From positions 1-64,000 of IMG/VR virus record IMGVR_UViG_3300010885_033832: DNA of 64,000 nucleotides; one strand, given 5' to 3'. The notes under the pieces are model-generated. The model searched no databases. It saw only the letters and a list, made by a program, of their open reading frames with translations, and was not told the origin of the DNA. The DNA comes from a virus. The translations under genes and the position numbers were made by a program. Positions 23,304 through 56,694 of the stretch are shown here, in pieces. How positions within the stretch are numbered: position 1 is the stretch's first letter; the number at the start of each line of letters is the position of its first letter.

Positions 23304-25307
23304 TTAGTACTCGATGGTTGCTGCAGCCGTGCCACCAGTGGTGTCGCGGAGTGCTGCGGCGGTACCGTTGACGTTGATCGTCGAGGTGATGGCGAGAGAC
23401 TCGACACCAACCTTGGCGACGCCTTCGAAGGTTTCAACGAACATCTTGTAGTCGTTGGTTCCGACGAGGGTCGAGTCACGGATGATACCGAGGTCGAGGG
23501 TTCCACCGTCAAGGAAGACGAAGGTTCCTTCAGCAAACAGGTACCAAACGAACGAGTCAGGGAACTCGAGGAGTGCAGCAGCACTCTGCGAGCCGAAGAC
23601 CGACGAGTCGAACGAGGCAACGAGCGTCACGTTCGAGGTGGCAAGGTATCCGTTGATTTCTGACATCGAGATCGAGATTGTACCGTCACCAGGCATCGAC
23701 AGCGTGAGGTCTGCTGCGATTGCGTCATATACCCAGTCAGGGATGATGGCGCGAAGCTGGGTGCTGGTCTCGATACGGTGACGCGAGCGGTAAGCTGCGG
23801 CCGCACGACGGATCTGAACGAGGAAGTCGCGACCAAAGCCGATGAGGCTTGTGGTTGTGACTGCTGTCGAGTCAGTTGCGATACGCGAGAGCAGGTTCTG
23901 CTCTGCCTCACGAGCGTGCTGGATCAAGCCAAGCTCGTTGTGGCGAGCGAGGAGCTCGGGGTACGCACGGGTGAACAGGTTACCAAACTGCATCTGCAGA
24001 GTAACAGCGTCGGTGACGGCTGTAAGCTCAGCAGCAGCAGTAACGGTCAACGACAACTTCGACGCAGGCGAAGGAGTTGTTGCTGAGTCGTTAGCAGCGG
24101 TCCACACACCAACAGCGTTAGCGTAGGAGCTAAGTACTGGAGGAGTGACGTAGCGAACGCCGCCACGGTCTGCCTGGAAACGGGGGAGTGAGTCGCGGAC
24201 AGGACGCATGTTCGTTCCAAGTCCAAAGACGTCGTACTTTACCTCGAGAGGCGTTGCAAATCCACCGGAAGCGATAAGAGCTTCTGGGCCAACAACTGCT
24301 TGGATCTTTGCGCGGTTCTCTTCGGGGTCCGAGCTCAAAACGCGAGAGTCGGGGTACTGGGTCGAGAGGGATGCAACAATGTGCTGTTCTCCATCTCCAC
24401 CATTGACGCGACGGAGGGTGTGCAGGCGCTTTTCAAAAGCCTGTGCCACCTCCGACATGTCTGTAAGGGTGCTTCCAGCCGTGTAGCCAGGGATGTCCGC
24501 GCCCGCTGTGATAGCAACGGGTGCTGCGGGTGCAGCCTGAGCAACTGGACGGCGGTCTGCTGGAGCTTCGAAAGCTCCTTCTGCTGCGGCGGTCACGGGT
24601 GCCTCTTCCTGCGCCTCGGGCGCAATGTCGGTGATTTCTTCGGTTGGTGCCTCAGCCTCTTCAGCACCCTCGACGGAAGCAACAACTGCTTCTTCGCCAG
24701 CGGGAGCCTCTTCGGCAGGGGCGGGTTCTGCTGTTTCAGCAGGGACGACTTCCTCATCAGTTGAGAATTCAGCAACAGGAGCATCGACATCAGCCGATCC
24801 ATCCAGTACTTCTTCAACAACTTCGGGTTCTTCATCCGTCGAGAATTCGGCATTCTCATCGGAGACAGTCGATGCCTCAGACATTTTGTCTTTCTTGTCC
24901 TCTTCGGGCATGGTCATTGGAGCTTCTTCTTCTACAACGATCTCTTCCTCAGTTGGAGCGGTGGGCTCTTCGGTCTCTTCTACCATTTCTGGTTCAGTAG
25001 CCATTGGGGCTTCCTCTTCTTCCTCGGCGGGGATCATCTCTTCAGATTCTCCATCACCATATACTCGATTAGTGGCTTCGGCGGCCATGGAAACAAGTTC
25101 CTCAGCCTGCGCCTCACGGCGCTGTACCTCACCACGGACGGTCTCTAGCATGTCCGCTAGAGTTGTCATGGCATCCACTGACTCAGGTGTGAGATCGCCG
25201 TTCTCGTCGATAGACTCGAACTCGGTGATGATGCCCGCCTGAAGCTCCGAGACTTGCTCGTCGTTCAGTTCGGACAGTCGGTCCAGTTGGTTCTTAAAAG
25301 AATCCAC
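23304..25307 (-). CDS. Major capsid (hexamer-type) protein with fused acidic N-terminal scaffold region
   Basis: 667 aa; ~260-aa E/A/P-rich N-terminus; RPVRDSLPRF--DRGG and LDLGIIRDSTL--TNDY-MFVETFEG capsid motifs; GGAG RBS. Confidence 0.88.
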   Translation of the reverse strand: MDSFKNQLDRLSELNDEQVSELQAGIITEFESIDENGDLTPESVDAMTTLADMLETVRGEVQRREAQAEELVSMAAEATNRVYGDGESEEMIPAEEEEEAPMATEPEMVEETEEPTAPTEEEIVVEEEAPMTMPEEDKKDKMSEASTVSDENAEFSTDEEPEVVEEVLDGSADVDAPVAEFSTDEEVVPAETAEPAPAEEAPAGEEAVVASVEGAEEAEAPTEEITDIAPEAQEEAPVTAAAEGAFEAPADRRPVAQAAPAAPVAITAGADIPGYTAGSTLTDMSEVAQAFEKRLHTLRRVNGGDGEQHIVASLSTQYPDSRVLSSDPEENRAKIQAVVGPEALIASGGFATPLEVKYDVFGLGTNMRPVRDSLPRFQADRGGVRYVTPPVLSSYANAVGVWTAANDSATTPSPASKLSLTVTAAAELTAVTDAVTLQMQFGNLFTRAYPELLARHNELGLIQHAREAEQNLLSRIATDSTAVTTTSLIGFGRDFLVQIRRAAAAYRSRHRIETSTQLRAIIPDWVYDAIAADLTLSMPGDGTISISMSEINGYLATSNVTLVASFDSSVFGSQSAAALLEFPDSFVWYLFAEGTFVFLDGGTLDLGIIRDSTLVGTNDYKMFVETFEGVAKVGVESLAITSTINVNGTAAALRDTTGGTAAATIEY

Positions 25308-25427: not shown

Positions 25428-28319
25428 TTAAGTTAGCAATCGAAGCAAACGATTCATCTGCGATGAAATATCTGCTTGACTGTATACATCCGATCCTGCT
25501 TGGAAACCTTTCAGTTCCCGGGTAGCAATATCGGCGTCCTCTTTCCCAATTTTATCTTCGACACGGGTTACCATGTCGTCCATCAACTTCTTCAGCGTAG
25601 GGGGAAGATCGCTGTAGCGAACTTTCTGCGCTTGGTTGTCAAATGGGAGAGGAAGATTTGCAATCGCTTTTCCAAGTTCTGTTGTGGAAGAGCGAACATT
25701 TTCGAGGGAGTCGGCGTTTAGTGCGCCAGCATCAAGACGATCAATGATGTCAATGAGGTCCTTTGAGGCCATAACGGAACCCAAGTAGTTTCCAGTGTTG
25801 TCAAGGTTCTCAATGTCTTCAATTTTTTGAAGAACATCTTGACTACCTGAGTCTCCAAGGTCTTGCTTCAGTCGAGCAAGAACCTGACGGAATCGACCCT
25901 GAGCATCACGAGGCTGAGTCTTGGGTGTGTACTTGACACGACCATCGTTCTTTCCCTCTTTGGCATCGATGATGTCCTGAATGTTGACACCAGGGAGGAG
26001 AATCTCCAACTGCTTGGGGTCAACCTCAGTAAGGTCAGGAGTGTTTCCGGCACGGATTTGGCGAACAGCCTCAATAACTGCATCTCCACTAGCAGAGGCC
26101 AAGATTGTCGCACGGTTACGCATTGACTCAAGACTGGCGGTGATGGAGTCTGAGGCCGCAGTCTTCCATTTTTCAGGAATCATCTTTGCTTCACCCAGCG
26201 CACGAGCGCGCTTGGCGATGTGCTTACGAACCTTGGCTTGGTCAGACTTCTTAGCGCGACCATATGCTTGGATGGCGTTCTTCAGGTCTGAGGCATTACG
26301 GATTGGATATGAGCCATCTGGAAGAGCCTGACCCTTGTCAGCAAGAGTCTCGCGCTCTTTTGAGGTAAACTTGGCAAACTCTGTAATAGCCGAGAGTTCG
26401 CGAACGCGCTGGACAATGTCGCCCGCGCTAGCCGTGAGGCCAGCCTCGAGGATACCCTGCTTGGAGAGAGATGCAAAGAACATGTCGTAGTTCTCTTCCT
26501 CCATCTCGTAGGGCTCTTCGGTCTTTTCAGAACGCTCTTCTTCGTACTCGTGCTTCTCATAGTTAGCGAGTGATACGCGCAACTGCCATGCCCACTTCTG
26601 GTGCATTTCAATGCGTCCACCAATGAAGTTGGTAATACCCTGCTCATTGACTTCATTTGCCACGTCAAAGACGGCCTTGAGAAGTCCAACAACACTTTCG
26701 TTGACTTCATGAAGATCAGCCACCATATCTTGAGGCGTTGCGTCACTACCGAGGGTAGACTCACCAAACTGACTCATTTTAGCAAAAGTAGCAAGATCAA
26801 AAGGAGCCTTGTATCCAAGCTTTCGGATATTCTCCGCAAGTGGATCAAGTGATTCTTCGACATCTTCATAAATTTCATCAAAGAGAGCGTGAAACTGTGG
26901 GAAGTCATTTCCTTCAACGTTCCAGTGGTAGCCCTTAACCTTGGCCGCAAAGACAGATACATCAGCGAGGGTCTGCTGGAGAATCTCAGCCAGACGTCCA
27001 TCAATCTTAGGAGCGTAGGACTTCATCTTCTTGTCAGCAAAGTCAACCCGAGCTTTTTCGGCAGCTGCTGTAAGAGCATTGCGCTCTTTTGTTTCGATGC
27101 GTGCAATGCGCTCGTGAAGCTCGTCAACGGGATTGGACTTCATACGAGCGAGAGTGGCAGCCCCAGCAGCAACCAGAGCCATGACCTGACCTGAGGCAAC
27201 GCGGGCACGAGCAATTGGGAAGCCGGGAACATTGACCTGGCATACGGCTACAAGCTCAAGTGAGCCGCGGATCGGACGCCAGTCACCCGAAGGTGCCGAC
27301 GCGCGAAGGGCACGAACCTGCTCAGGCTGGACTCCGGGGCGAAGTGCTCCAGCAACCCAGATTCCATAGCGGTCCTCGCCAGCGTGGACATCGGCAACGG
27401 CGCTCGCCGTGTCATCGTAGTGCTTGATGGCTTCGGCTGCTGATGCGGTAAGGTCGGCGTGTCCACCAGCGAGAGTGAGCTGACCAACAGGAACATCTGT
27501 TCCTCCGTCGGTGCGGATAACTCCAGTGTGGAAGAATCCATAGTCACTACGACTACGAGGTGGCTTAGTACCAAAGGGAAGACCAATGTGGTCGGTATCC
27601 CATGACGCAATGTGTCCGTATACATGACCGTCGTCAGAAACAGTAAGTGGGGTCGCCCTTTCAAGGCGTGGGTTTTCGAACCACATTGTGGGTGGTACGA
27701 CGGGGATCTGCTGAGCAACCATGCCGCACGCCACTAATGACGCGGCATCCATGGGGTCAGCATCGTCGGCGTATACGCCATCTGTCAACACAGTTTCCTC
27801 CTGAGTATAAGCTTCTTGCCCTTCATCGGCAAGAGCAATTTGACACTCTTGAAAAGCGGGCTTTGATACTATTGTAACCGCCATTACACGAGCCTTATTT
27901 ACAACAATTTTGTCTTTCTCGATTTTGTCCGGTTTCTTGGCCATATCCGAGACGTCTTTATCTTTTTCCTTGCGATTGTCTTCCGCTTCAAAGCGATCCA
28001 TGTCCGCAGAAACACCGCGCAGGAAACCGTTTCGGACGAGGCGCTCGGCCTCACGTCCATATGGGCCGTCATCGAAAGTGCCGTAGCAGTTTCCAATTCC
28101 GTTCTCAGTGCGTTCCATTTGATCGATGCGACCAACAACTACCGAACCATCGTGACCAGAGCCAGTCTTAATCTGCCACAGAAGCGGGAGGGGTAGTTCA
28201 CGAATCTCAATGGCGTCCTTGCGGAACATACGACCATCGCCAGACTCAACCTCCTCAGGGATAACAAGAGGAATAATAAACTTAGACCCGTTCATGCGAA
28301 TTTCACTGTCGTCGTGCAT
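25428..28319 (-). CDS. Capsid maturation protease polyprotein with an internal Dps/ferritin-like domain
   Basis: N-terminal protease-like region (E-ESGDGR, LPLPLLWQ, GH-GSVVVGRI, GVSAD, VTIV--PAF); second domain with SGDWR; Dps motif KGYHWNVEG-DF-QFH-LFDE-Y...D-LAE at ~26565-26995; LPDGSYPI domain. Confidence 0.85.
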   Translation of the reverse strand: MHDDSEIRMNGSKFIIPLVIPEEVESGDGRMFRKDAIEIRELPLPLLWQIKTGSGHDGSVVVGRIDQMERTENGIGNCYGTFDDGPYGREAERLVRNGFLRGVSADMDRFEAEDNRKEKDKDVSDMAKKPDKIEKDKIVVNKARVMAVTIVSKPAFQECQIALADEGQEAYTQEETVLTDGVYADDADPMDAASLVACGMVAQQIPVVPPTMWFENPRLERATPLTVSDDGHVYGHIASWDTDHIGLPFGTKPPRSRSDYGFFHTGVIRTDGGTDVPVGQLTLAGGHADLTASAAEAIKHYDDTASAVADVHAGEDRYGIWVAGALRPGVQPEQVRALRASAPSGDWRPIRGSLELVAVCQVNVPGFPIARARVASGQVMALVAAGAATLARMKSNPVDELHERIARIETKERNALTAAAEKARVDFADKKMKSYAPKIDGRLAEILQQTLADVSVFAAKVKGYHWNVEGNDFPQFHALFDEIYEDVEESLDPLAENIRKLGYKAPFDLATFAKMSQFGESTLGSDATPQDMVADLHEVNESVVGLLKAVFDVANEVNEQGITNFIGGRIEMHQKWAWQLRVSLANYEKHEYEEERSEKTEEPYEMEEENYDMFFASLSKQGILEAGLTASAGDIVQRVRELSAITEFAKFTSKERETLADKGQALPDGSYPIRNASDLKNAIQAYGRAKKSDQAKVRKHIAKRARALGEAKMIPEKWKTAASDSITASLESMRNRATILASASGDAVIEAVRQIRAGNTPDLTEVDPKQLEILLPGVNIQDIIDAKEGKNDGRVKYTPKTQPRDAQGRFRQVLARLKQDLGDSGSQDVLQKIEDIENLDNTGNYLGSVMASKDLIDIIDRLDAGALNADSLENVRSSTTELGKAIANLPLPFDNQAQKVRYSDLPPTLKKLMDDMVTRVEDKIGKEDADIATRELKGFQAGSDVYSQADISSQMNRLLRLLT

Positions 28320-31063
28320 TACTCTGCTCCTTCTTCCGCGTAAGCGCTAAATACCTTGGCTTTGACGTAGTCATTGCCATTGAGGTAGTTGCCGACACAT
28401 CGGTGGTGGCCATCGATAAGTTTGTAGCCTTCGTCGTCTTTCCAGACCTTGACAGGCTTGTCCGAAGTGTAGTTACGCCCGACTCTACGCATGTTGACAC
28501 TCTTCTGGGTAGGGATGAGATCCATAAACAAGATTTCTTCAATCTGATCTGAGTCACCATCTTCGACCATAACGCGAATAGATTCTGGGACCTCTACACG
28601 ATCAAGGTTGAAATAGTTAGCGGTGCTGGAGTTGTAGTCGTCACCAACGGTCTGGATCTGCCCGCCTGCACGGAGCGCAGACATACGTTGCACTAAATCG
28701 TCACGCTCAGCACGAAGGACAGCCGCAGTGAGAACTTGCTCTTCCGATACAAGGTATGTGGCGTCATCAATTATTCCGGCCTCGTGGTTACGCTTGTCAC
28801 CAGGCCAGTAGCCGTTCATTTCCTTGTGACGGAGAGCACAGTACCCCTTGGCGCGAGGGCCCATGTACTTGCGAAGGTTACGAACACAGCGAGTCCAGTC
28901 GCCGGGTGTCGTCCAGCGGATCTTGAGCCCGCCGCGACCAATGGTCCAGTATCGACGAAGTTCTTCGGCATTGCCGCGGTTGCGGTCAAGACCGCCCGCT
29001 GCCGTAACAGGGACGCTGGGTCCGAGTAAGACGGCGAGAGCAACAGAGGCAGCCATAGGCTTGTTGGGATCTTCCTCTTTTTTAACTCCGTGGCTTGAAT
29101 CAACCTGCTTGAGTACGTCGTTAAGCGTGTCATTATCGAGGGGGACAACGGGAGGAGGCGTTGTAGAGTTGAGTTCAGCAAGGCTCTGTGGGTCGCGGTT
29201 CCACTTTCCATCTTTGCGGGTGTAGACCATGGGCTGGCTCGACTGCGAGCTGGCGGGGATCAGGCTGATTAGTTTGAGAACAGCGCGGGGGTCATTGGAG
29301 TCAACGATAGCCATATACATAGGCTGAACGTCGGTGGTCTTGGGGGTAAGTTCTTGCTCGGGGTCTTTGTTGACACCAGCAGCAGTAATGGGGTTGTACC
29401 AAATGCTATTCTTGACACCTAAACCGCTAGTTCTTTTGAGCCAATTCTTGAGGAGCGGGTGGTAGTCAGGAGTTGTCTCCATCTCCTTGCCAACCTTGCG
29501 CTCAAGCTTCTCGCCGTAGGCTCCCTTTCCTCGGTAGCCCTTGTCTTGGACATCAATCTGAGGAACATCCATTGGGACGTAGTTATCACGCTGGGACTGA
29601 ACCCATGCAGGCCAGTCGCGGAGGATTTGCTGAAGGTCTTGGCTTGTCAGGCGAGGGAGTGTTCCGGGGAGGACGGCGTCGGGGTTAAGTCCCGAGTCGC
29701 GAGGCTCACCAAGAATCCCACTTGTGTCTAGTTGAGGAGATTCAGTCTGCGCGGCTACAGGAGCTGACTCGGCAGGTGAAGCCGAAGGAGCTCCTTCAGC
29801 AGTTGGGAGCATGGTTTTAGCAGGAGCAACACTCTTACCGGGGACGTTTACCTCGGTACCGTTATCCATCTGGACAGTGACGGAGCCACGAGAAGGATCG
29901 ATAGCGGTGATGTTACCCTGACGCGATGAGTCGCCGTCAATGGTTACGCGAGTCCCAGTCTTGGCAAACTTTCCAGTAGCGTCGCGGACCTGCTTTGACG
30001 CTTTCTGCGATCGCTCTTCAGGAGTGTAAACGCCGTCTTGATTGGTAACTGGCTCCCCAGCAGCGGTAAGGCTGTCGATGAAAGACCAATCAATTTCGTA
30101 GACGGCACTAGCAGCCAGTGTGGCCTCTTCAAGGTCAAGGTCTTCGAGACCGACAAACTGATGGGGACGGTACGTTAGTGAGGCAGCAATAGCAATAGCA
30201 GATTCTGGATCAACATCAAAGTGACTGACCTCAGGGTAGTGCTCTGCCTCCGAATCCATAATCTCGTCGATGTAGTAGATATTGGTATGTGGGTTTCCAA
30301 GATCGTCCCACTGGCCGTCGTCCCACATATAGGTGCGACCATCGAGATCTACTTTGTAGAGTCGATCGATGCCTGATCCGTCGTGGTGGAGGCGCACAAT
30401 AAAGTGTGGAATAATTTCTTCGACTTCGGTCTTGGCAAGCATGAAGTCGGAAAGCTCAGTAGTTGGGTGGATGTAGATGGGTTCGTACATCGGAGTTGCG
30501 TAACCATCGGCGCGGATAGCGGCCTTGTTCTCGCGCTCTACAATTGCTCGCGCCCAACGCCATGCTGGATCGCCACCCCACAAAGCCCATGCAATGCGTC
30601 CGTTGCTGGGGAATCCGTCTTCTCCTGGCGACCAGCCCTTGCCCTTTTTGTCAACTTCGTGACGGGGGAAATACTTAGCAATGTGGCGGACCTTCTCAAT
30701 GCCGATCTGTCCACCCTTAGCAAGAGTGCGGGCAGTGTTGACGCCGACAGGCGTACCACCGCGCTTCTCTTCTTTGCGCCATTCGAGGGCTTTTTTAGCT
30801 TCTTCTTGTGCGGTCTTGGGGATAGTGTAGAGCCGAGATTTGCCCGCAGCGGTGATAGAAACATCAAGAGTAGTCAGAGCTGAGTTGGCTAATTCAGTGG
30901 CAGGGCCCGCGTAATAGGGTTCTTCCCAGCCAGATTGAGACATCTTTACAACTTCAAAGTTGCCGGAAGCAACGACCACATTTAAAGAGGAGTCGATGAC
31001 GACTCCCTTTGATCCGTTGTTATACAGAAGTAAATCTCTGTACTGCCCGACTAGCTCTGTCAA
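28319..31063 (-). CDS. Multidomain head-associated protein with C-terminal ParB/Srx-like domain
   Basis: 914 aa; RIAWALWGG domain, QVRDATGKF plus SH3-like barrel, W-TPGDWTRC...KGYC domain, PTQ...LIDGHHR ParB/Srx motif. Confidence 0.7.
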   Translation of the reverse strand: MTELVGQYRDLLLYNNGSKGVVIDSSLNVVVASGNFEVVKMSQSGWEEPYYAGPATELANSALTTLDVSITAAGKSRLYTIPKTAQEEAKKALEWRKEEKRGGTPVGVNTARTLAKGGQIGIEKVRHIAKYFPRHEVDKKGKGWSPGEDGFPSNGRIAWALWGGDPAWRWARAIVERENKAAIRADGYATPMYEPIYIHPTTELSDFMLAKTEVEEIIPHFIVRLHHDGSGIDRLYKVDLDGRTYMWDDGQWDDLGNPHTNIYYIDEIMDSEAEHYPEVSHFDVDPESAIAIAASLTYRPHQFVGLEDLDLEEATLAASAVYEIDWSFIDSLTAAGEPVTNQDGVYTPEERSQKASKQVRDATGKFAKTGTRVTIDGDSSRQGNITAIDPSRGSVTVQMDNGTEVNVPGKSVAPAKTMLPTAEGAPSASPAESAPVAAQTESPQLDTSGILGEPRDSGLNPDAVLPGTLPRLTSQDLQQILRDWPAWVQSQRDNYVPMDVPQIDVQDKGYRGKGAYGEKLERKVGKEMETTPDYHPLLKNWLKRTSGLGVKNSIWYNPITAAGVNKDPEQELTPKTTDVQPMYMAIVDSNDPRAVLKLISLIPASSQSSQPMVYTRKDGKWNRDPQSLAELNSTTPPPVVPLDNDTLNDVLKQVDSSHGVKKEEDPNKPMAASVALAVLLGPSVPVTAAGGLDRNRGNAEELRRYWTIGRGGLKIRWTTPGDWTRCVRNLRKYMGPRAKGYCALRHKEMNGYWPGDKRNHEAGIIDDATYLVSEEQVLTAAVLRAERDDLVQRMSALRAGGQIQTVGDDYNSSTANYFNLDRVEVPESIRVMVEDGDSDQIEEILFMDLIPTQKSVNMRRVGRNYTSDKPVKVWKDDEGYKLIDGHHRCVGNYLNGNDYVKAKVFSAYAEEGAE

Positions 31064-31384: not shown

Positions 31385-34300
31385 CTATGCTAACTCGTCT
31401 GGGGTGAACCCCATCAATTCTAGTGCCTGCATGATCTCTTCGATTGAGGCGTTGTAGCGGTTAGCCACACCACCAGCAGAGTACTCAAGCGGTACGGACA
31501 TACGACCCTCAGACATGGCTTTCCGGTACTGAGCAAGAAGCGCATATCGGTCGAAGATCTCAGCCATAGTATCGGGCGAGAGCTGGCTCTGGCCTGTGGT
31601 CGGTGCTTGGCGAGAACCTGCGCCCTTGCCTGAATCTTCTGGCTTGTCAGCAGAATCTCCGCCCATCAAGAAATCAAAACTCTTGAGGATGTCGAGTACG
31701 TCCTCTGAAGCTTTTGGCGCTGGCGTCTCTTCTACTGGCTCGGCTGGAGGCTGCGCGGGCTTGCGCGGTGGACGTGGCTTACGCGGCGCTTTGGGGGGAG
31801 TAACTGTCTCAGTGGGCGGAGCCACTTCTGGGGTGTCTGGCGCAACAGGCACCTCTGGAACCTCAGGAACCTCAGGTGCGTCAGCAGGCTCAGCAAAGTA
31901 CGCGTTGAGCTTATCCAGCTCACCATCAAACAGCGCAGCAAACTGACGACGAACTTCTGGAATAACCACTCCTGCATTCTCTTTAGCTCGGAGTCGCTTG
32001 AAGATTAATCCTTCATAGAGTCCACGCAGGTTAGTTTTACGCTTATACAGCGCCTCAATTGCTGGATCGCCGGTGGGGATCTCGAGAGACGGATTGTTGT
32101 TGCGATCAACTAAGAACTTAGCAAACCCAAGAAGCTGTTCCTCCGAGAACTTCTCCAGAATTGGGAATGGAGCATCCCCGGGAATACGTCGCCAGTCTAG
32201 TGAGTTGTCGAAGGGCTCTGGGAGTGCCGGGAAGTCCTGGTAGTGAGTAGAAGTAGAAGTTGGGCTTCTCCACTGCACGCTTGGGTTCTCAAGGTTGATT
32301 CCCTCAGGCAGAGCCATCGTTGCTCGGGACGCCCGTCGTGCGCGGGAGCTGGTGCTGGCAGGTCCTGCGCCTTTCTCCTTGCCCTTTTCCTGCTCTTCGT
32401 AGGCTTCTTTGTACTGTTCAATGAAGAAGTCAGTTGGGTAGGCGGACGTGGTGGTACTCCAGATGTCGTAATCCTCGAGATCCTTTTTATCGATTCCACG
32501 TTCTTGGAGAAGATCCTCTACTGTGGCGGCGATTTCCAGGAGGCGAGCCATGTTACCAATATCCATGGCTTCTTCAGCTCGGGAGAGAGCGACATAGAGC
32601 ATGTTAGCCTGTTGCATAATCTCGTCATCTGAGAGATCACGGAGTTCGCGCTTTGGCTCACCATCTGCGTTCTTTTCAACTTCCCAGAAAGCAAAGACAC
32701 TGTCACCTACCTTAACATTGGGGGCTTCCAGACCTTTTGCGCCGTGCACGGTCAGCAAGGCCACATCGTAGCCCAGCTCGTCAGTGTAGGGGTCGCCAGA
32801 TTTAGTTCCATCAATCAATGCGCTGTACTTTGTACGAGCCGACTTGTCGACAGCGCTCATCTGGAAAACAGTTTGACCCGGACGGATTGTCTCATATTGA
32901 GCGTAGGCCACGGCGTAGAAGAGATCATCGGTAGATTCTTTGTTCTTTGCTCTACCGTCGATAAACTGACCAACTACCTCTTCGCGCGGCTTGGGCGACC
33001 CAACAGCCTTGCCGTTAGACCATAGTGTCAACATATCTTCGCCGTCAGAGCCTTCACTAACAATATATGTGCGAAGACTCTCAATGGTAGGAGTCCCCTC
33101 TTCATCAGGGGCTCCCTCGAGTCCAAAAGTAACAAGGTTTCCCGCTCCCAATGAGTACTTGAAGTCAATTAAGCCGGGTAGATTTTGCTTAAGAGAGGGT
33201 TTTTCGTTAGGACTATTGGTTCTCTTTTTGTCCTCTTTGCCCAGATTATTTGTGTAAAACTTAGAGAACTCTCCTGGAGTAGGTTTGTCGGCTTTTTCAG
33301 CCTCACGATACGTAGACTCAAATCCGAGGACATTGAGAGCGTCTTTACTGAGTGGGTTGTGCACCGAAGCATCTGCTTGGTACTTGAGACCACCGTCCAG
33401 GATTGATACAGTGACAATCTTTGTGCCTTCATTGCGCTCGAAGAGAAGCTCAACAACGCCCTCACCGAGGATTACACTAGGATTGCCAGCTTTGTTAATT
33501 TTATCTGGGTCCCGGAGTACGTTTCCGTCTTCATCACGGAGGGCAAAATTGGTGGAGGTGTAGAACTGCTTGACAATCGGCTTACCACCAGCGGCCCGGA
33601 ACTCAGCGTCAGTTGGCATACTGACATCGCCCATCAACTTGTCTTTGTCGAGAGCTTCAATTCTACTGCGGGCTTTGGCTGCTTCTTTGAGCAAGACATT
33701 GACTGTATCAGAGCCTGGGTACACATTTGCAATTCTCATACCCTCGAACTCTTTGTCGGTGGTGTTGAATTTAATTAATTCAAGCTCTTCCCGCAGTCTG
33801 TCTGAGATGTTTGGATCGGCCAGCAGGTCACGCTTGGAGCGCTCGAGTCGCTGACGGAAGCCTAACAATCCAATGTTCGAACCTGTGATTCTAAGGTTTA
33901 ACAGCTCGGAAGACTTTCCCTTTGTAACCGCGTACTTGAATCTGCCGGGAACGAGGGGCTCAAAGTCAAACCCATCACCATCAAGATCAGCCATCCGCTG
34001 AGGAATGTTGGGAGTTATTAGTCCCTCATACTCTTCGACATAGTCCTTTTGTCCGGAGATCAGGTATGAAGGCTTGGGAGATACAGTCTGACGGATAAGT
34101 CGGAGCATTTCTTGACGCCGTTCAACTGCCTTGACAACTACATCTTTCTTTATGGTTTTTCCGTCAGAAGATTTTTCTTTTACGGTTTTGGTATCATCCG
34201 AAATCATGCCAAATTCTTCGGCGACTCGGAGGAAGGCAATCACCTTGGAAGACAAGCCAGCACCACCTTTTCGGTACTTATCCATGATAGATTGCTCACC

Positions 34301-37300
34301 GCTAGTTCCAGGAGCGTTCAACCGAAGATCGGGGTAGTTTTGGAATACGCCCATTTCATGGTTGGCAAATGCCTCTTTACGAGACCTAGTTGTTGGTCTC
34401 ATTTGCATCAAACTTAGAGCTTCAATGTTTGTGATGAACTCTTCACGTCGGTTGGCGTTGATTGCAACGCGACGTCCAGCAGAGGCATATGTAGGTAGGA
34501 CACCTAAGAGTGCGGTGTTAGTGGCTTCGATGTGCATGTCAACTTGTTCAGTTGGCATAGAAGTGCCGCCAGCGCGCTTGATAGCCGCTTGAATTTCAGG
34601 AGTCATCTTTTTCAAAACTTCGGGGGGAAGAATTCTAGAGAAGATTTTTCCCTTGGGTGCTTCGTCTGACTTGCCAGAGGTAGTACGAAGCGGCTCACCC
34701 ATCAACCACAGTGGGACGTTCGCCACATCAACGAGTGCCTGGGGGGAGCGGTATGTTTTGGTAAGACCATTCTTGACGTCAGCGACGCTATCTGCTTGAT
34801 CGTAGAACTTGAACATCTGGTTGACAGCACCACGGAACGCGTACAGAGCTTGTCGGTTGTCACCGACTACAACCACTTGCACAGCTAGCCCATCTTCGTT
34901 CGGCATAGCAAGCTGGTTTACTAGGTCGATTTGTGCAGCGTTAAGGTCCTGAGCTTCATCAACAAACAGAGTGTCTGCTGTGGAACCTCCAGGGACTTTT
35001 TTCACAACATTGGCAAGGCCCGATAACTGCCAAATCTTTGACAACATAGAGTTAGTGACTGGAAGCGGGGAGAAGGGCTGTCCATCGATAGCGCTAAACG
35101 CCAGCTTATTCTTGATGGTGATAGGGACCGTTATATTTTCGTCCCACATCCTCTGTGCAATTTTGACATAGTCCCATGCAAGCGCCTCATCTTTAAGAAC
35201 CTTTTTTCTTAGAGCTGAGCTCATGTGTGGGAGCAGGTGATCTAGTGTTATTTTTCTATCTGCTGTAGACGCAAATCCATTCGCAATACCGCTCATGAGG
35301 TCGCTAAAAATAATATCAGAAGTTATTTTGTCATCTTTACTGATTACTACTTCTTCAATACCGTAAAGCTCGGTGGCCTCATAAGCAGACATAAATGAGG
35401 TGCTATCTAGTTTGGCGGACCTTCCGTCTTTGGCTCCCATCGACAAGTCGAGCTTGGCGTTGAGAGTGGCTCGTTTTGTTGCTTTGAGGTCAGAGTCAAC
35501 GTAGGTTGTGTTGGGGTCGTCGAGTGTCATTTCTACCCCGAAGAAACCCAAGCTGTCCAAGGTTCGAGCCTGTACGTTGGCTCCAAATCGAGCAGCGGCT
35601 TCCTCGGCAGTGCTACGGTTGAACGCGGCCAAGAGTATCTTGTGTTCGGGGAACATATCGGACAACAGTTTGAGCGTACTGGTTTTTCCGGTACCAGCGC
35701 GGGCGACAATCACCATACTCTGGTTCTGACCAAAGTCGTTGATGATCTTCAGCTGTTGCTCACTGGGGGTAATACCAGTCTGTTGGTAGACCTGCTCAGC
35801 GGTATACGTCCGGGCCTTGTAGCCACCCACTTTTCCTCGACGAATCTTGGAGAAGTTGTCAGGCTCGCCAGACTTGCTCACACGCGAGGCGGCCCCAGTA
35901 CCAGTTGAATTTTGCTGATCCGACAGGGCGTCGCGGAGGCTTTGCTTCTTATCGGAGATGAAGATCATGCCAGAGTCAATCTCGGAAATGAGCGCACTCT
36001 TTTGGGCATCGCTAATCGGGTCTTCTTCGGTGAGATCGGTTTCAGGGGAGACACGGTACCACTGGCCGTCTTCACCCTTGGCGTAGGTGTCCAAGGAGAC
36101 CTGACGAGCGCCCTTAGTTGACTCTCCATCTGCGCCTGCGATTACGTCGCGGGAAATACGAGCACCTGTTGGAGCCACATCGAAGATGTCCGCCGACGTT
36201 ACGCGGGTACGAGAAGCAGACTGGTTACGGTCCTGAGAAGTGACCGGACGCTCAGAGTTGGTAAGGCTCGGAGTGAAAGGAGCGCGCGAACCGCTAATCT
36301 CAGACTGACCGTCGGCTGCATCAAGAGCGTCAAACACCTCAGACGATGAATACGAACGCGTGTTGTCGGAGACTCCAGCATCGTCAGCCGCGTACCACAG
36401 TCCGTCGGATCCCCGGACAAAGTTGTCTACTCCGTTGGATACTATATCTCCAGCAGTTGCTGAGTTGAGATCGTCAACGGTAGAGATAGACATATCAATC
36501 TCATCGGGCAGCGCTGCACCAGCGCCCTTACCTTCTTCAGCATCTTCTTGTTTAGGTGCTCGTCCTCGGTCAGGACGGCGGCCCGATGCTTCGGTAAAGG
36601 CAGCGATGACACGCTGGACGGTTTCTTGTCGTTCTTGCGCCTTAGCAATTCGCTCGCTGTACCCATTGAGGATTTCGCGCTGTTCGTCCGTCAGGTACTG
36701 CTCGTCAGGGTTGTCAAGCGAGTTGGCGTATTCGCTCTTCTCGTTGTTTAGTTCCCCGAGAAGTTCTTGGTACTCACGCCACTTACGGAGTGCCTGTTTG
36801 CGTCGACGAGCAAACTCCTCAATGGGGATACTGAGGAAGTCGCGGTAGTTAGTCGACTCTGTGTAATCTTCTTCGTCCTCGCTAGCAGCAGAAGGCCTCG
36901 ATCCGTCGCCATCACTCGGCTCGGGCTCTGGTTTGCTTGGCTCGCTGGGTAGGGCACCCGGACCCTTGGGTGGTGGGTTACCTTCAAGAGGGAGGAATGG
37001 ACCAGACGGTCCTCGGCCATCAGGCTGTCCGTCTTGAGAGTCGCTTTTACCCTTCTTTCCCAACTCAATGAGTGGGATAAGTCCGCCAAAGAATTCGATG
37101 TGCTTGATGTAACCAACCATGTCGTTTTCGTCGTACATCTTGCGAATCTGGACAGAGCGCTTATACGCCCAACGATCCCAGAGTGCCCGCTCATTGGGGT
37201 CCAGTCGCTGAAGGAACTTGTACGAGTCAGTGACAAAGTCTGAACGCTCTTTTTCGGCGCGCTGAAAGTTAGCGAAAGCTGCGGCTTTTTCAGAGGCAGA

Positions 37301-40300
37301 AGCATCGGGATTTTTCTGAGCTTCGCGCGCATCAAAGTAAGCACGGCGGACACGATCTTCAAGGTAGTCGATGTTTGAGATGATGTCGTCGACCTTGAGA
37401 GGCATGAACTTGGTATCTTTGAATGCCTGCCATGCATTGAATACGGCTCGGGGATCGGCCCCGACCGGACCATCAGCAAAGCGATCTGCTGTAGGGGAGT
37501 AGGGGGCTCCTTCGTCGTTGACGTAGTCCCCACTCTTCATCTCTTCGTTGATGCGGTCGTCGAGATCCTTAATGGATATGTTAAGTTTTCGCTCTTCAGC
37601 AGCAATCTGGTTCTCAAGGATGGTGATACGCCCACGCCAGAAGTTGAAGTCGCGAAGCAGCTCAGTGCGGCTAATGATGCCCATTTGATCAGCGTTCTCG
37701 ATCATCTTACGCACACGGTTGTATTCGCGGTGAGCATCTTCGAGGCGACGCTGAATATCGATTAGCTTGCGGACACGCTTGTCTTGGAAGATTGGAGCGT
37801 TAAAGTCGGTACGCGAGTTGATGGGTAGTTCTTCTTCTACCAACTCAGGGTATTCATCCCACCAATTTTTCTTACCTCGGGGCTCCTTGTCGCGTGGACG
37901 TCGACCGCCACCGCCACCGCCGCCTCCGGATCCCCCACCACCGCCGGGTCCGCCCGGACCACCAGGAGGGGGAGTCTTACCGCCAGGCTTGGCTCCTTCG
38001 CCTTGACCAGTGCCAGGTTGTTCGCCTCCTTGACCGGATTCTCCGCCTTCTTCTGGTTCAGGGTCAGGTTCAGTGTAGTCTTTTCCGTTGATAACGCCAG
38101 CCAAAAGTTTGCGACGGCGCATTATTTCTTCGATGCGACGTTTTTTCTCAGCCATCGACAGACGAGCGTCCTTGAGGCGATCCATCTCAACACCGTAGTC
38201 GTTGTAGAGGCCACGCAGAGCATCTTTTTGATTGTCGTTTAAGTTCTGGCCCAAATCCGTAAGGTCTTGATTAACTCCATCAACAAAATCAGCGTAGTTT
38301 TCAGCGTTAAGGAAGAACTTTCTGGGTTGATCTACACCCCTATCGTCCTTTTCAGTGCCGTAAACAACCTCAACTTCACCAATCTCTTCGATGTCGTTCA
38401 GGATTTGCGTAAATGACTCATACGCATTGAGAGCGTCCTTGAAACGCTTAATAGTTTCTTTAGCTTCGGCCTTTTCGTCTTTGTCCTGGTCCTTATCCTT
38501 ATCCTGCCCAGCACCAGTATCACGCTGGCCCTGACCGCCAGAAGTGGGGGGAACTTCTTCCTCGGCACCGTCAGGAATACCGGCGTCCTGGTTGATAAAC
38601 ATCTGACCAGTGCCCTCCATGCGTTTGAGCTTGGAGGGGTCATAACGACGCTTCTGGATGTCGATTAGATCGGCTGCGGTATAGCTTTCAGGGAAGAATT
38701 TTCCAGTTGCTGGGTTGAGTCGTCGCCACGACGTAGTTCCGTCTTCTCGAACTTGGTAGAACTCAAAGATGTTCTTTTTGGTTTCGTCGTCCTCGTACCG
38801 AATAACTACACGCGATCCCCGAGGAACTCCGGTTACATCTGCAATTCCCGTAACAGGGGTGAGGTTTTCTTCGTCGGTGGTGGTTGTGGTTTCATCGTCT
38901 TCGTCGCCGGGACCCTGCAGGTTGATATAGCCGTTTTCAGTCTTGGCAAAAAGCTCTTCGCTAGAGAGTCCTACAGCGTCTTCGCCGTCGGCCACATTAA
39001 ACCAAAGACCGTCTCTCTTGGTGTAGAACTCGTCGTCAAGCTCAGGGTCGTTAATGCGGAAGTCAGCTTCTGCGCCCTCGACGGAGTCATTAAGTTGGTC
39101 GACACTATCAACTTCGTCGCCCAGAAAAAGCGTAATGTTGTCGTCAGTAAGTTCAGAGATAAGATCAAAAATTTCTTGGCTATCAGGAGTATCTCCAACG
39201 AGTTGTTCAATATCCTTGAGATACCCTCGGAGATCATCGCGATCTTGACGGTTTGATAGATCATCCAGACCTTCAATAGTGCTGTTGAAGTCGTCAATGA
39301 GCGAGAGTACTGCATCACCGTCTTCTTCACCGAGCAATGCCTTGAGGCGCTCGCGTTTGAGCTTGCGAGCAATCTCTTCGTCGGAATCTTCCGTGGTGGT
39401 AGCGGTGCTGGCAGCCTTGAGCTTTTTGATGGCTGCTTCGTGAATACGAGCCAGCTTTTCAAAATTAGCTTTGTTCTCGAGGTTGTCGTCAAAACGTCCC
39501 GAATCGATGGCGGCCCTGATTTGGTCGAGTTTTGCTTGGAGAGCTTCGACGTCGTTGTTCATTTCCGCAATGAGATCGTCGACATCCTTATCGCTGAAAG
39601 CATTGGGGTCGACTTCTTCTTCGATACCGAGGAGTTTGTTGACCTGCTTCTTGATGTCTGAAAGTGCTTCTTGAGCAAGCTCCTGCACTTCAGGGTCGTC
39701 GTCAAAATCTCGCATTCGAGTTTCAACAGCCTCAACCAAAGTGTTCAGCGCCTCAATAAGGCTTTGGCGGTCTTCGTCAGAAATTTCATCCAGCTCGTCG
39801 ACGTAGTCGAATAGGTCTTTCACATCACTCAACGCTGAGTCAACGTCTGGGTCTAGCAACGAGTTCTTTAGGTCATTGTATGGATCACCCGTTGAGCTGA
39901 CCGCTGTCTCTTCTTCGGAGAGGTCCGCCACCTTTGAGTTGATATATCCGTTGTATACCTCGGTCGGGATAGCGACGTTGTCTTCCCGAGACTTGTTGAT
40001 GGCAAAGTCAATGTCATCGCGGTACTTGGTCAACTCGTCAACACGGTCGGGAGACAGGCTCAACTGTCCGTTGGCGTTGCGATTCAGAATGTCGTCAACT
40101 AGTTTGCGTCGCTTCTCGAGATTCTGGACATACGCTTTATTGGTCGGAGAATCAAATCCGCTAGGGGTTTTGGCGCGATCGATGGCGGCTGCCAAAAGCT
40201 TCATAACAAGTTCTGCTCGAGCTTTGCGCTCTAGAGTGTCATTGAAGACTCCATCATCGTAGTCCTTCTTGACTGCGTCATAGTCAGCCTGCATCTCATC

Positions 40301-44939: not shown

Positions 44940-46421
44940 CTAGAAAACGTACTTCTCAATAAAGTCGCGGAGGGCGTCGGGGATTCGAGAGTCAATGCCA
45001 GCGCCAGAGAACTTTTCCATGAATACCTGAGCAAAAAGTTCGGCAAACGCTTCGTACGGGTTAGTCATTCCATACTCGCTGAGCGCGGCCAAGATCCATG
45101 GGTTAGCCTGAATGAGTTTGGCTAGTCGAGCTGAAAACTGAGCTGCGTCTTCGCGTTCTCCGTTGAAGTCGACCTCTTCTGTTACACCCTCAGGGGAGTC
45201 GCCAAAGTCGATGACGTGCCCCCACTCATGGTTGATCACATACTCAACAAATCGGTCTACCCCACCTGAGTAAGCAGCCATCATCTGCCATGCCTGATCA
45301 CCGCGCTGTGCTTTTAGACGTTGTCTATCAAAGAACCTGTCAAGACGGTCTTGCGCGGCAATGTTGTCAGGGAGGAGGACCGACGCGTCAACAATGATTG
45401 ACCTCGTGGCTTTGTCGTAAGTTGGTTCACCATTTTGATCTAAATACGAGACTGTGGAGCTTCGAGCATACCCAGTGTAATTATCGTTGTCTGTATCATC
45501 AGGAATTCGATTAGCCAAAATAGTTACTTCAACAAGTCCTCCAGTGTCCTTGGTGTTATCACGAAGCTTTTGAATATTCTTGAGGAAAGAGTCAATCTTA
45601 TTGGGGTGCGCCCTAAATTCTTTACTGATTGCAACGGTAACATTGCCTAGCCGATAAAGATCGACATTCTCGTAGGCTTCAGCCTGTTTCGCAATAAAAT
45701 CTTGCTGAATATCGAGGATATCCTTGCGAAGACGATCCTCCCACCCCGGACCATCAGCTTTGTAGCTATCGATGATGCTAGCGCTACTAGGGTCACTGAT
45801 AAATCGATCATATTGCCTACTCGCAACGCGCCCAGCAATCTCATCAAGATAGGACGAGGCCGATACATTTTCCCAGCCGTCGATATCTACGCGGGGGAGA
45901 GACCGAGCACTCCCAGCATCTCGCGCCATAGAAGACCCGGGAGTGACGTCGGGACTTTGATATCGCTGGGTGTAGTCGTCGTCAATGATGATTTCTATAC
46001 CATCGTCGTCTTCGCCCATCTGAGAGGCAGCACCCTTACCCATGTCGGAGAGATTAGGGATGTTGCTAAGATCGGTGGGAGGCTTGGATTTGATTCCCAG
46101 TTTACGAAGAGTGCTTTCGGGAATAATGGCACTGGCTTGAGTAAGATTTTTAGAATCAGCGAGGTAGTCTCCGCCGGGGACGTCGCCACCGTTCTTAGCA
46201 TCGACGCGGACAACGGCTTGGGTCGGCGACGTGATTTTGACAATCTTGCCAACACCACTACCAATTTTTCCATTAGCAAGGCGTGCAAAGAAGCGGACTA
46301 AACCGCCCATGTAAATCCACTGGCCTTCTGCATCTCGCAGTTGCCACTTCCAGTTGTCGTTTCCTTGGAAGGCGGCAGATACTAGTGAGTCAATGTCTCC
46401 ATCGTTACTCTGTGGTGCCAT
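44940..46421 (-). CDS. Zincin metallopeptidase-domain head protein
   Basis: HEWGH zinc motif plus downstream SEYG-TN-YEAFAE; N-terminal ~120 aa similar to the N-terminus of the 4425-aa protein. Confidence 0.78.
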   Translation of the reverse strand: MAPQSNDGDIDSLVSAAFQGNDNWKWQLRDAEGQWIYMGGLVRFFARLANGKIGSGVGKIVKITSPTQAVVRVDAKNGGDVPGGDYLADSKNLTQASAIIPESTLRKLGIKSKPPTDLSNIPNLSDMGKGAASQMGEDDDGIEIIIDDDYTQRYQSPDVTPGSSMARDAGSARSLPRVDIDGWENVSASSYLDEIAGRVASRQYDRFISDPSSASIIDSYKADGPGWEDRLRKDILDIQQDFIAKQAEAYENVDLYRLGNVTVAISKEFRAHPNKIDSFLKNIQKLRDNTKDTGGLVEVTILANRIPDDTDNDNYTGYARSSTVSYLDQNGEPTYDKATRSIIVDASVLLPDNIAAQDRLDRFFDRQRLKAQRGDQAWQMMAAYSGGVDRFVEYVINHEWGHVIDFGDSPEGVTEEVDFNGEREDAAQFSARLAKLIQANPWILAALSEYGMTNPYEAFAELFAQVFMEKFSGAGIDSRIPDALRDFIEKYVF

Positions 46422-47563: not shown

Positions 47564-49195
47564 TTAGACCTCGGGTTCTGCAAGTGGGACAGGAGGAAGT
47601 GCCTCAGGTGGTGCTTCACCTGGGTTTACGGGTGTGGGTCCGGGAGCGCCGAGAGGCTGACCTGCGAGAGCCTGTTGGACCTCGGGTGGGATCGGAGCGG
47701 GGTTGTTAGCCTGTGCGCCCTGACGGATTGTCTCCATAACCTCGGGTGCGAACGCCGAGAGCATGGCTTCGGTGAGTTCGGGCGTGATAACGGCGCGAGA
47801 CTGAAGCAGGCGGAGCGTAAGTTCAGTTGGCGTGGGTGCATCGGCGTCGGAGAAGCCGTGGGCACGTCGCCACGTCTGGTACGAGATCGCCATGTTGCTA
47901 AATCCAGCATCTGCATCAGCCGCGCGGTCGTTTCGAGTCGAAACTTCGGCGGGGTCATACCAAACTACAACGCGAGAGATCTCTTCGTCGATGAACCCGA
48001 GGCTTTTGAGGTAGGGGCGGAGGTAGACAACGGTCAACGCGTCAGACAGGAGCAACATGATGGGTTCGATGTGTGCCTTGTAGAGGCTTTCATCAATTTG
48101 GACGGCGTTGGAGTACTTGACGTTGGCAAGACCAGTAACGGTGTCCTTAGGAACGTCGAGGCCCTGCAAGATACGCTCCAAAACTCGGTCTGAACGCTGA
48201 GCGAGGGCTGGGTCAAAGGAACGCTCAAACTTAAACTGCTTAATCTTGTCGGCAAGCTCGGCTGGGCCGCGAATAATGAGTGGCACGACGGCGCTCGCAG
48301 AGGATTCGTCCGAGATCGGAGTCGTCATGGCGTCAACGAGTTGATCTTCGAAGTCGTCCTCCTGCTCCTCAGGCAAAATGTTGGTTCCTTGCTCGTCATC
48401 GTCCGAGTAGGGGTAGTCAGCATCGGCAGAAGCGGCCAAAGAGAGGCCGTCGGGGAGGTAGAGTGCTCCGGCGTTGAGGCGCGAGCGTGCTGTAGCGCGG
48501 AAGGTGCGGTTCAAGAGGAGAAGTTCGGCGCACAGGTCGAGGACACCGCGCATTGAAGAGTCTGGCTCGTCCGAGAAGCGGGGGTGAGCTCGCCAAATGC
48601 GTCCGACGAAGGCTGACTTAGAGATAGGGATAGAATCTCCTGCTGGTGAGTCGCGTCGCTGGAGGATGGAGTAGTTTCCACGTGCGTCCATGACTAATTC
48701 GTCGGTGGAACGGATATCCCAGCTCTCAAGGAGGCCAGAACCAATCATTTCGGGACGCTGGACGAGGTAGCACTCGCCTGTGACGCAGAGATTGAGAGCA
48801 GCGTCGCGCAAGAGGCCAGCCTGACCACCAAAGGTTGAGCTGAGGCGAGCAAGACCACGTTCTGCAGCCTCCGCCATACCGTCGGGGATCATATCGGACG
48901 AACGAGCGTTGACTGGAGTCTCGGCGGGGTTCTCAATAACGGCTGCGTAGAGCTTGATTCGGGAAACGATAGACGCAACGAGGTTGAAGGCATACTTGAC
49001 TTCACCAATAGCGTCGTAGTATTCCCACGCCTCTTGTTGCCACTGCGTTCCGCCCGATGCCTTGCGACGTTTGAAGGCTTCGCCCTCGGCTTTGTCGTCG
49101 AGACGCATGCGAGTAGCAGCAGCGGTCAGTCCTCGGGGGGCTGCGTAGGGGGCAGCGGTGAAGGGGATGCCCGAGTCCTTGCGAAAAACGCCCAC
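47564..49195 (-). CDS. Portal protein
   Basis: 543 aa; WQQEAWEYYDAIGEVKYA, RIWRAHPR---EPDS and RILQGLD-P motifs of actinophage portals. Confidence 0.88.
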   Translation of the reverse strand: MGVFRKDSGIPFTAAPYAAPRGLTAAATRMRLDDKAEGEAFKRRKASGGTQWQQEAWEYYDAIGEVKYAFNLVASIVSRIKLYAAVIENPAETPVNARSSDMIPDGMAEAAERGLARLSSTFGGQAGLLRDAALNLCVTGECYLVQRPEMIGSGLLESWDIRSTDELVMDARGNYSILQRRDSPAGDSIPISKSAFVGRIWRAHPRFSDEPDSSMRGVLDLCAELLLLNRTFRATARSRLNAGALYLPDGLSLAASADADYPYSDDDEQGTNILPEEQEDDFEDQLVDAMTTPISDESSASAVVPLIIRGPAELADKIKQFKFERSFDPALAQRSDRVLERILQGLDVPKDTVTGLANVKYSNAVQIDESLYKAHIEPIMLLLSDALTVVYLRPYLKSLGFIDEEISRVVVWYDPAEVSTRNDRAADADAGFSNMAISYQTWRRAHGFSDADAPTPTELTLRLLQSRAVITPELTEAMLSAFAPEVMETIRQGAQANNPAPIPPEVQQALAGQPLGAPGPTPVNPGEAPPEALPPVPLAEPEV

Positions 49196-56373: not shown

Positions 56374-56694
56374 TTATACGAGGTAGTCCGATAGGTCAGA
56401 CTCGAGGGCTGGGCGTGGCTTCGCGCCGACAATTGTCTTGACGACTTCTCCGCCAACGAACACCTTCATCGTCGGAATCGAGACAACACCATACGCGGTG
56501 GGTGTCTCGGGATCCTCTTCGATGTTCAGCTTCACGATTGTAAGGCTGGGGTATTCATCGGCGATAGCGTCAAGTACTGGACCAACGGCGCGGCAGGGGC
56601 CACACCATTCAGCCCAGAAGTCAACGAGGACCGGACCCTCGGCGCTGAGCACATCGGCGTCGAAGGTCGAGTCGGTTGTTTTTCCAGCGGGCAC
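56374..56694 (-). CDS. trxA: Thioredoxin
   Basis: VLVDFWAEWCGPC active site, SIPT cis-Pro motif, GAKP. Confidence 0.95.
   Translation of the reverse strand: MPAGKTTDSTFDADVLSAEGPVLVDFWAEWCGPCRAVGPVLDAIADEYPSLTIVKLNIEEDPETPTAYGVVSIPTMKVFVGGEVVKTIVGAKPRPALESDLSDYLV

Follow-up and report, generated by a model that had tools for sequence, protein, structure and literature searches.

A Dps domain within a phage head protein

The DNA analysed here, referred to as the window, is a 64,000-nucleotide stretch of a viral contig (positions 1 to 64,000 of IMG/VR record IMGVR_UViG_3300010885_033832). Its minus strand contains, at 25428-28319, an open reading frame (ORF) of 963 amino acids (aa) in which residues 441-586 comprise a complete Dps domain, located between a region assigned to the prohead proteases and a conserved C-terminal region. 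The parts of this protein, and the codons of its predicted ferroxidase site, are as follows.

25428..28319, minus strand: whole head protein, 963 aa, consisting of protease region, Dps module and conserved C-terminal region; stop codon at 25428-25430
27090..28319, minus strand: prohead-protease region, residues 1-410, with an S78-like part at residues 55-171 and a second conserved domain at ~200-395
27060..27074, minus strand: upstream candidate cleavage motif LTAAA, residues 416-420, codons checked
27000..27059, minus strand: short, mildly basic N-terminal tail of the Dps module, residues 421-440; the insert relative to homologues starts here
26562..26999, minus strand: Dps core, residues 441-586, recognized by Pfam, PHROG, PDB and a structural model
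26925-26927 (H465), 26922-26924 (W466), 26889-26891 (H477), 26844-26846 (D492) and 26832-26834 (E496), minus strand: ferroxidase codons
26439..26561, minus strand: acidic linker or tail, residues 587-627, with a short conserved hydrophobic helix, NYDMFFASL
26424..26438, minus strand: downstream candidate cleavage motif LTASA, residues 628-632, codons checked
25431..26423, minus strand: conserved C-terminal region, residues 633-963, with an ALPDGSYPIRN module, an RDAQGRF motif (25890-25910) and a terminal block ending in LRLLT

The original prediction, made from the DNA letters and their translations, placed an intact, in-frame Dps/ferritin domain at 26565-26995 inside a protease gene, and family profiles, solved structures and the modelled fold all agree with that assignment. 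The profile search for Ferritin/Dps proposed with the prediction gave a match of Pfam PF00210 (Ferritin) to residues 445-586 (E 2.2e-20, 73.5 bits against a cut-off of 24.5) and of the phage Dps family phrog_3636 to residues 443-584 (E 8e-28). When the whole record was searched in six frames the Ferritin match, at 26562-26987, was the sole ferritin-family match in the 95-kb viral contig. The top match among solved proteins is the Pseudomonas Dps 8ff9 (E 1e-20), aligned over its residues 14-155 of 156, followed by ∼40 further Dps entries. An AlphaFold2 model of residues 410-640, based on an alignment of 45 sequences, displays helices A, B, a short BC, C and D with a mean predicted local distance difference test score (pLDDT) of 88, rising to 94-99 in the core. 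The best PDB matches of the model, identified with Foldseek, are all Dps proteins, which superimpose with a root mean square deviation of 1.3-1.8 Å over 142-152 columns and with template-modelling scores of 0.84-0.93 on the target.

Inspection of the codons located the ferroxidase residues in the three motifs in which they had been predicted, namely H465 and W466 in YHWNVEG, H477 in QFHALF, and D492 and E496 in LDPLAE. The Trp directly follows the first His, and the Asp and Glu display the usual D-x3-E spacing. All four ligands and the Trp align with their counterparts in solved Dps proteins, and all are invariant both in close relatives and in 77 aligned distant long fused forms (see below). 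The auxiliary Asp481 is replaced with Ala in the relatives P0007 and P0008. These data indicate that the domain is an intact Dps mini-ferritin in which the active-site residues are kept, and for which catalysis is predicted.

Unlike free-standing Dps proteins, which comprise ∼150-200 aa, the domain is encoded within the 963-aa ORF; the product of its predicted cleavage would consist of 212 aa. The module has an isoelectric point (pI) of 4.56, with 41 Asp and Glu residues compared with 21 Lys and Arg. The linker that follows the core contains 14 acidic versus 4 basic residues (positions 587-630), while the N-terminal tail, residues 419-440, is mildly basic, with a pI of 9.3 and 6 Lys and Arg versus 4 Asp and Glu. 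DNA binding through a basic tail is a feature of only some members of the Dps family.

The domain is an insert that was inherited

Compared with the homologous proteins of DSL-LC01, Microbacterium phage Big4 and Arthrobacter phage Mimi, the 963-aa protein contains ∼210 extra residues (∼425-632) between two well-aligned blocks, and none of the three has the module. The original prediction had asked whether homologous proteases lack the insert; these three do. When the closest protease homologues were taken from a large protein collection, 98 of 121 likewise had no Dps and 23 had it. The homologues with Dps have 232-251 aa between the end of the protease and the conserved block that follows, and nearly all of those without it have 25-64 aa. 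The only other long linkers in this set belong to two proteins in which the C-terminal ALPDGSYPI module is duplicated, and the possibility that an alternative cargo occupies the same site in homologues with long linkers and no Dps was rejected on this basis. On a tree of the protease domain the presence of Dps requires 2 changes, compared with ∼20 when the labels are shuffled, and 21 of 22 carriers fall in one supported set. Together these results show that the module was captured essentially once in this protease family and was then inherited.

Several observations bear on the authenticity of the gene. The ORF layout and gene order are the same in three further viral contigs from IMG/VR (L005-L007), with identities of 98, 83 and 75% over the insert plus linkers, and the same architecture is evident in P0006-P0008 and in several proteins from ENA, JGI and Logan. 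One contig from a lake sequencing run spans 25428-27146 without a difference, and contigs of a run from another study bridge the two junctions (27042-27291 and 26406-26628). A lake metatranscriptome also yielded contigs that are exact matches to the Dps core, although these could derive from DNA carry-over. The ratio of nonsynonymous to synonymous substitution rates (dN/dS) is 0.09-0.14 in the Dps core, 0.03-0.09 in the protease region and 0.06-0.10 in the C-terminal region; the core is thus under purifying selection, like its flanks. The nearest cellular Dps found is at most 37% identical, in a single-protein scan that reached Bacteroidota and a few other phyla and that relies on exact peptide patterns, such that closer cellular relatives may exist. 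An assembly chimera at the domain boundaries, which the original prediction had named as fatal to it, is contradicted by the layout shared with other contigs, the bridged junctions and the low dN/dS.

Other modules of the homologues also vary. The ALPDGSYPI...KRAR module is present as a tandem duplicate in two of the proteins P0269, P0273 and P0283 and is missing from the third, showing that the modules vary independently. In DSL-LC01 (∼5300-5971) the C-terminal region of the protease protein contains an unrelated insert of ∼90 aa with four Cys residues; a Pfam search of this insert returned no match, and a reading of it as HiPIP-like was not supported.

The motifs that flank the module

In the original prediction the module was described as flanked by ALTAAA and GLTASA, motifs said to recur at domain boundaries across the head proteins. 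Three further head proteins of the window are relevant to this proposal.

23304..25307, minus strand: major capsid protein, 667 aa, matched by phrog_777 (major head protein, E 1.8e-78), with an acidic N-terminal region of ∼265 aa
28319..31063, minus strand: multi-module head polyprotein, 914 aa, with motif sites at residues 70, 332, 559 and 686 and a ParB/Srx-like C-terminal module
47564..49195, minus strand: portal, 543 aa, matched by phrog_776 (E 5.8e-103), with LTAAA at residue 23

The strict motif [LIVM]TA[AGS][AGS] occurs 10 times in the capsid, protease and 914-aa proteins (2544 aa in total) compared with 0.26 copies expected, an enrichment of ∼40-fold; in 2000 composition-preserving shuffles, from which the expectation derives, the maximum was 3. 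The remaining proteins tested (16,334 aa) displayed no enrichment, with 4 copies against 2.3 expected. The motif is found at the same block borders in DSL-LC01, Big4 and Mimi, although the linkers around it differ. In the capsid protein an ITAGA site (24483-24524) marks the end of the acidic N-terminal part and reads VAITAGADIP in L006, L007 and DSL-LC01 and VAIVAGADIP in Big4; it is likely to be the maturation cut. The enrichment and conservation of the motif suggest that it is a recognition site of the prohead protease.

The two copies that border the Dps module differ in their conservation. Downstream, LTASA is invariant in P0006-P0008, L006 and L007 and lies in a non-helical stretch of low pLDDT, and distant relatives, in which the Dps is at most 54% identical, keep the site as hydrophobic-[TVI]-A-[SA/T]-[AG]. 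Indeed, in every fusion of the window type examined, distant ones included, the acidic linker contains an aromatic-x-x-F-x-x-L helix that is followed by the motif. Upstream, ALTAAA reads ALVAAA in P0008 and L007 and is located in a confidently predicted helix. The downstream site is therefore the robust one and the upstream site is less certain. Thus, recurrence of the motif at head-protein borders is borne out by its enrichment, by its positions and by the downstream site, while the upstream copy is only loosely conserved.

The protein that carries the module

Two PHROG families of head-maturation proteases match the carrier, phrog_859 (E 5e-93) and phrog_18402 (E 3e-57), and its homologues in phages of Arthrobacter and Microbacterium bear the annotation capsid maturation protease. 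The protease region is 55-63% identical to the corresponding regions of DSL-LC01, Big4 and Mimi. Its match to Pfam Peptidase_S78 is weak (E 7e-4, 20.2 bits against a cut-off of 21), and a sequence search of the PDB with this region found no solved homologue. Within the S78-like stretch, segments containing GHDGS (His56) and GVSAD (Ser103) are conserved in four homologues, and His56 and Ser103 are presumably the catalytic His/Ser pair. A profile comparison with the fused relative P0016 matched the Dps domain only.

The C-terminal region is retained in Big4 and DSL-LC01, both of which lack Dps, and is presumed to be a capsid-binding or scaffold-like part of the protein. An ESM Atlas look-up of the region gave scores of 0.81 or lower, a lead at most. 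The region also contains one of three copies of the motif RDxxG[KRQ][FW], all on the minus strand: at residue 804 of the carrier (25890-25910), at residue 360 of the 914-aa ORF (29964-29984) and at residue 29 of a 493-aa ORF (∼46317-46337). These three copies compare with 0.04 expected, and the motif is kept in Big4 and DSL-LC01; it could be a shared capsid-address signal.

Dps fusions recur in uncultured freshwater phages

A HMMER search with the Dps core against 1.8 billion cluster representatives returned 4502 matches, of which the nearest 148 were examined. More than half of these (88) exceed 350 aa, compared with ∼150-200 aa for a normal Dps. In an alignment of 77 of the long forms, the invariant columns are exactly two His, an Asp, a Glu, a Phe and a Trp. 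Pfam domains identified in the long forms include Peptidase_S78 (18), Peptidase_S78_2 (3), Mu-like_Pro (1) and Phage_Mu_F (2), together with kinase, phosphatase, zeta-toxin and RelA/SpoT domains, and many match head-maturation-protease PHROG families. Local searches recognized a prohead protease, of three sequence types, in 36 of the 88. The protease may precede or follow Dps, and other modules may intervene between the two. UniProt entries from uncultured freshwater phages include Dps fusions that were named automatically, for example as ‘Prohead protease'. The fusion of Dps to a prohead protease is a recurrent theme and is widespread in uncultured freshwater phages.

Deposited phage genomes present a different arrangement. 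In the 39 with any Dps match the protein is encoded only by a small separate gene, is at most 35% identical and is never inside a head protein. In the two cultured phages inspected, Bmoc and phiCT9441A, the gene is surrounded by others that function in metabolism, replication or lysogeny. Among viral Dps proteins that stand alone, the nearest, a protein of 144 aa that is 48-49% identical, is encoded in L010 (1227-1661) and L011 (2371-2805), between the terminase and a Mu-type portal and one gene away from a DUF6321 protein, a domain that also occurs in fusion polyproteins. This may represent a head-module Dps without fusion; no further protease or capsid gene was recognized when its neighbours in the two loci were scanned against PHROGs.

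Two further features of the Dps proteins were observed. P0032 (777 aa) carries a tandem pair of Dps domains (residues 40-182 and 203-343). In P0134, P0117, P0121 and P0096 metallothionein-like, Cys-rich stretches (runs of CGC/CxxC) adjoin the Dps module, which hints at a further metal-binding element.

Proposed function of the embedded Dps

The features described above point to a model, which we consider probable, in which a catalytically intact-looking Dps, inserted in the head-maturation protease, is carried into the prohead as cargo. The whole protein would be built into the prohead, as other prohead proteases are, and Dps would thereby enter the shell too. Once active, the protease would cut head proteins at the sequence hydrophobic-T/V-A-A/S-A/G, and the cuts on either side of the module would release an acidic Dps of ∼24 kDa (residues ∼419-630). 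The released protein, once folded or as a 12-mer, would be too large to exit and would be retained in the head alongside the genome. It would use peroxide there to oxidise Fe(II), which it would store, and so limit Fenton damage to the packed DNA while the virion is in lake water that is sunlit and oxic; in addition, Dps monomers might pass into the host together with the genome. Given the pI of the module (4.6), iron and peroxide scavenging is likelier than DNA coating. In Dps 12-mers both termini point outwards, and thus assembly before cleavage is sterically possible. Packaging of Dps into the prohead followed by its release, as the original prediction envisaged, is plausible, and is better supported now that Dps is seen to be joined repeatedly to three types of protease in both orders. 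Protection of the packaged DNA, injection and a wider redox theme, which that prediction also raised, are more speculative.

Several observations weigh against this model. The identity of the protease derives from the PHROG matches and from annotation, the S78 match being below its cut-off. The module is dispensable, as 98 of 121 relatives are without it. It is also acidic, unlike the basic internal proteins of T4, and would be an unusual partner for packed DNA. The loose conservation of the upstream site and its position in a helix mean that Dps may stay attached to the protease region. The full-length AlphaFold2 model (pLDDT 38, from a 6-row alignment) is uninformative, and the domain model alone was used. 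Finally, the metatranscriptome contigs that match the Dps core could stem from DNA in the RNA library.

It is also conceivable that Dps, made as part of the polyprotein, is a late helper that acts in the cytoplasm of the infected cell, shielding the replicating phage and the host from iron and peroxide stress. The protease would free it, or the prohead would expel it ahead of packaging or while packaging is under way. Free-standing phage Dps genes have been proposed to counter such stress and are read in this way (PMC8008677, PMC6669764). Their location among metabolism or replication genes in cultured phages, the acidity of the module and its absence from most relatives are consistent with the same role here. 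This proposal, however, leaves unexplained why Dps is repeatedly and specifically joined to prohead proteases or head polyproteins, in several orders, and why it is placed between the protease and the conserved C-terminal region. Furthermore, prohead proteases, such as those of HK97 and T4, are generally active only within assembled proheads, and a folded Dps, and surely a 12-mer, would be large relative to the openings of a capsid shell. We therefore regard a purely cytoplasmic function as unlikely.

A structural function would be served if the Dps 12-mer bundled twelve protease and C-terminal arms, nucleating or organizing the prohead core, with iron chemistry as a secondary property. The outward-pointing termini would allow a Dps within a longer chain to assemble, multivalent cargo drives the loading of encapsulins, and the tandem Dps domains of P0032 fit such a role. 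Conversely, the ligands and the Trp are invariant in 77 diverse fused forms, which a purely structural role would not demand; most homologous proteases build heads without the module, and the conserved flanking sites suggest that it is cut away. A role of this kind appears quite improbable. A more speculative proposal, and an improbable one, is that the heads are encapsulin-like iron compartments in which protease-loaded Dps 12-mers mineralise iron, providing an iron store and peroxide sink for an iron-poor, peroxide-sensitive freshwater host, such that these phages would be living intermediates in the exchange proposed between procapsids and ferritin-loaded encapsulins. Lastly, a host/phage mis-join during assembly or a decaying relic whose domain is out of use, to which a metagenome-assembled contig that is ∼56% complete might give rise, is effectively refuted by three more IMG/VR contigs and the ENA, JGI and Logan proteins with the same layout at 75-98% identity, by junctions bridged in contigs of different studies, by a dN/dS of 0.09-0.14, by the invariant catalytic residues and by the distance to the nearest cellular Dps found (at most 37% identity).

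Comparison with known systems

The module shares its family, its ferroxidase motif and its phage origin with the free-standing Dps proteins of Lactobacillus phages such as Semele, of the ‘Gratiaviridae', of podophages of the Proteus phage Privateer type, of Streptomyces phage Bmoc (gp31) and of Bacillus phage G (gp346). These are, by contrast, products of separate genes (∼140-240 aa) and are at most 35% identical to the domain in the window. The ferritin-like gp346 of phage G, for which a fold match was found, has been detected in the virion by proteomics (PMC12484599).

In the model that we favour the module resembles the internal proteins and Alt of T4 and the ejection proteins of SPN3US and phiKZ-like phages, prohead cargoes that are trimmed by a protease at a short consensus and delivered with the DNA (PMC9026906, PMC7697877, PMC10052503). 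Those cargoes are separate products with an N-terminal targeting peptide or propeptide, whereas the cargo in the window is embedded in the protease protein, and no ferritin-family cargo has been described for them. The candidate site in the window, hydrophobic-T/V-A-A/S-A/G, also differs from those of T4 and phiKZ-like phages, in which the sites end in Glu.

A further parallel is provided by MuF-fused effectors and polyvalent proteins (Iyer et al. 2017, PMC5512222), which are multi-domain proteins found in a virion-gene context whose swappable enzyme modules (ParB-like, RelA/SpoT, kinases) are presumed to be carried in the virion and injected. The 914-aa protein, which ends in a ParB/Srx-like module, matches this description, and some Dps fusions contain MuF, zeta-toxin or RelA/SpoT domains. 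Neither Dps nor ferritin is mentioned in that survey. A zincin-type peptidase is the hallmark of polyvalent proteins, while the ORF in the window has a prohead protease, and a Pfam scan of it identified no peptidase of the zincin type; its module, moreover, is a protective metallo-enzyme as opposed to an obvious anti-defence effector.

Encapsulins with ferritin-like cargo (EncFtn, Flp and IMEF; EncA-EncB/C in M. xanthus) offer another parallel, as their HK97-fold shell is filled from within by a ferritin-superfamily iron oxidase that is physically linked to a shell-binding segment (PMC9321382, PMC11202242). A prediction that procapsids, too, might contain enzymes as cargo was published in 2026 (PMC13669383). 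In contrast to encapsulins, the window derives from a tailed phage with portal, tape-measure, adaptor and tail genes, and its cargo is of the type that forms Dps 12-mers, is embedded with no terminal loading peptide of its own, and would be expected to share the shell with DNA.

Open-access papers were searched for Dps or ferritin in phage capsids or head proteases, and none was found that describes a natural fusion between Dps and a head protease. Phage Dps and protease-processed capsid cargo are both known. While phage Dps proteins have so far been read as helper genes in the infected cell, in these phages Dps is wired into the head-assembly machinery, repeatedly and with different types of protease. 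If Dps does travel in the head, it would add a new class to the cargoes of capsids, namely a protective metallo-enzyme as opposed to a scaffold or anti-defence effector, and could help to explain how virions survive in oxidative, iron-containing sunlit waters. It would also be a counterpart of ferritin-loaded encapsulins, with a bearing on the connection that has been proposed between these and procapsids (PMC13669383). The flanking motif provides a candidate code for cleavage in a group of actinobacterial phages that is large but little studied, and this code can be checked in cultured relatives without Dps such as Microbacterium phages Big4, Pumpernickel and Cece. For capsid engineering, the junction between protease and C-terminal region may offer a natural place at which to load foreign proteins.

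The head-gene neighbourhood and source of the window

The Dps-protease gene is located inside the head module, directly upstream of the gene for the major capsid protein. On the minus strand the order is portal, several ORFs, the 914-aa polyprotein, the Dps-protease ORF, the major capsid protein, and then adaptor and tail genes; those beyond the capsid gene encode adaptor, tail tube, tape-measure and tip proteins. The source record is an IMG/VR contig estimated to be ∼56% complete, and several studies of freshwater and lake metagenomes have sequenced DNA that is nearly identical. Runs with less than 0.2 of the sampled words (X8-X20) were left out of the evidence, as were regions uncovered in X2 and X7. 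Among named relatives the nearest is DSL-LC01, a phage assembled from a lake metagenome with a predicted actinobacterial host (PMC10611076).

The 914-aa ORF was considered as a candidate portal, but this was ruled out as the true portal is at 47564-49195 (phrog_776). In Big4 the counterpart of the 914-aa protein and the protease are fused into a single protein of 1552 aa. The ParB/Srx-like module (DGHHR) of the 914-aa ORF, which returned no match in a Pfam search of this end of the protein, is absent from DSL-LC01, Big4 and Mimi, and is thus a second lineage-specific cargo module. In DSL-LC01 the annotated border between a ‘603-aa' gene and the protease gene (3419-3422) falls within a conserved block, which suggests a frameshift or an assembly error. 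Between the portal and the polyprotein lies an ORF of 4425 aa (31385-44662, minus strand) with a helicase-like stretch and zero copies of the strict cleavage motif. The phage thioredoxin to which the original prediction had drawn attention is indeed present, at 56392-56682 on the minus strand (PF00085, E 1.6e-28).

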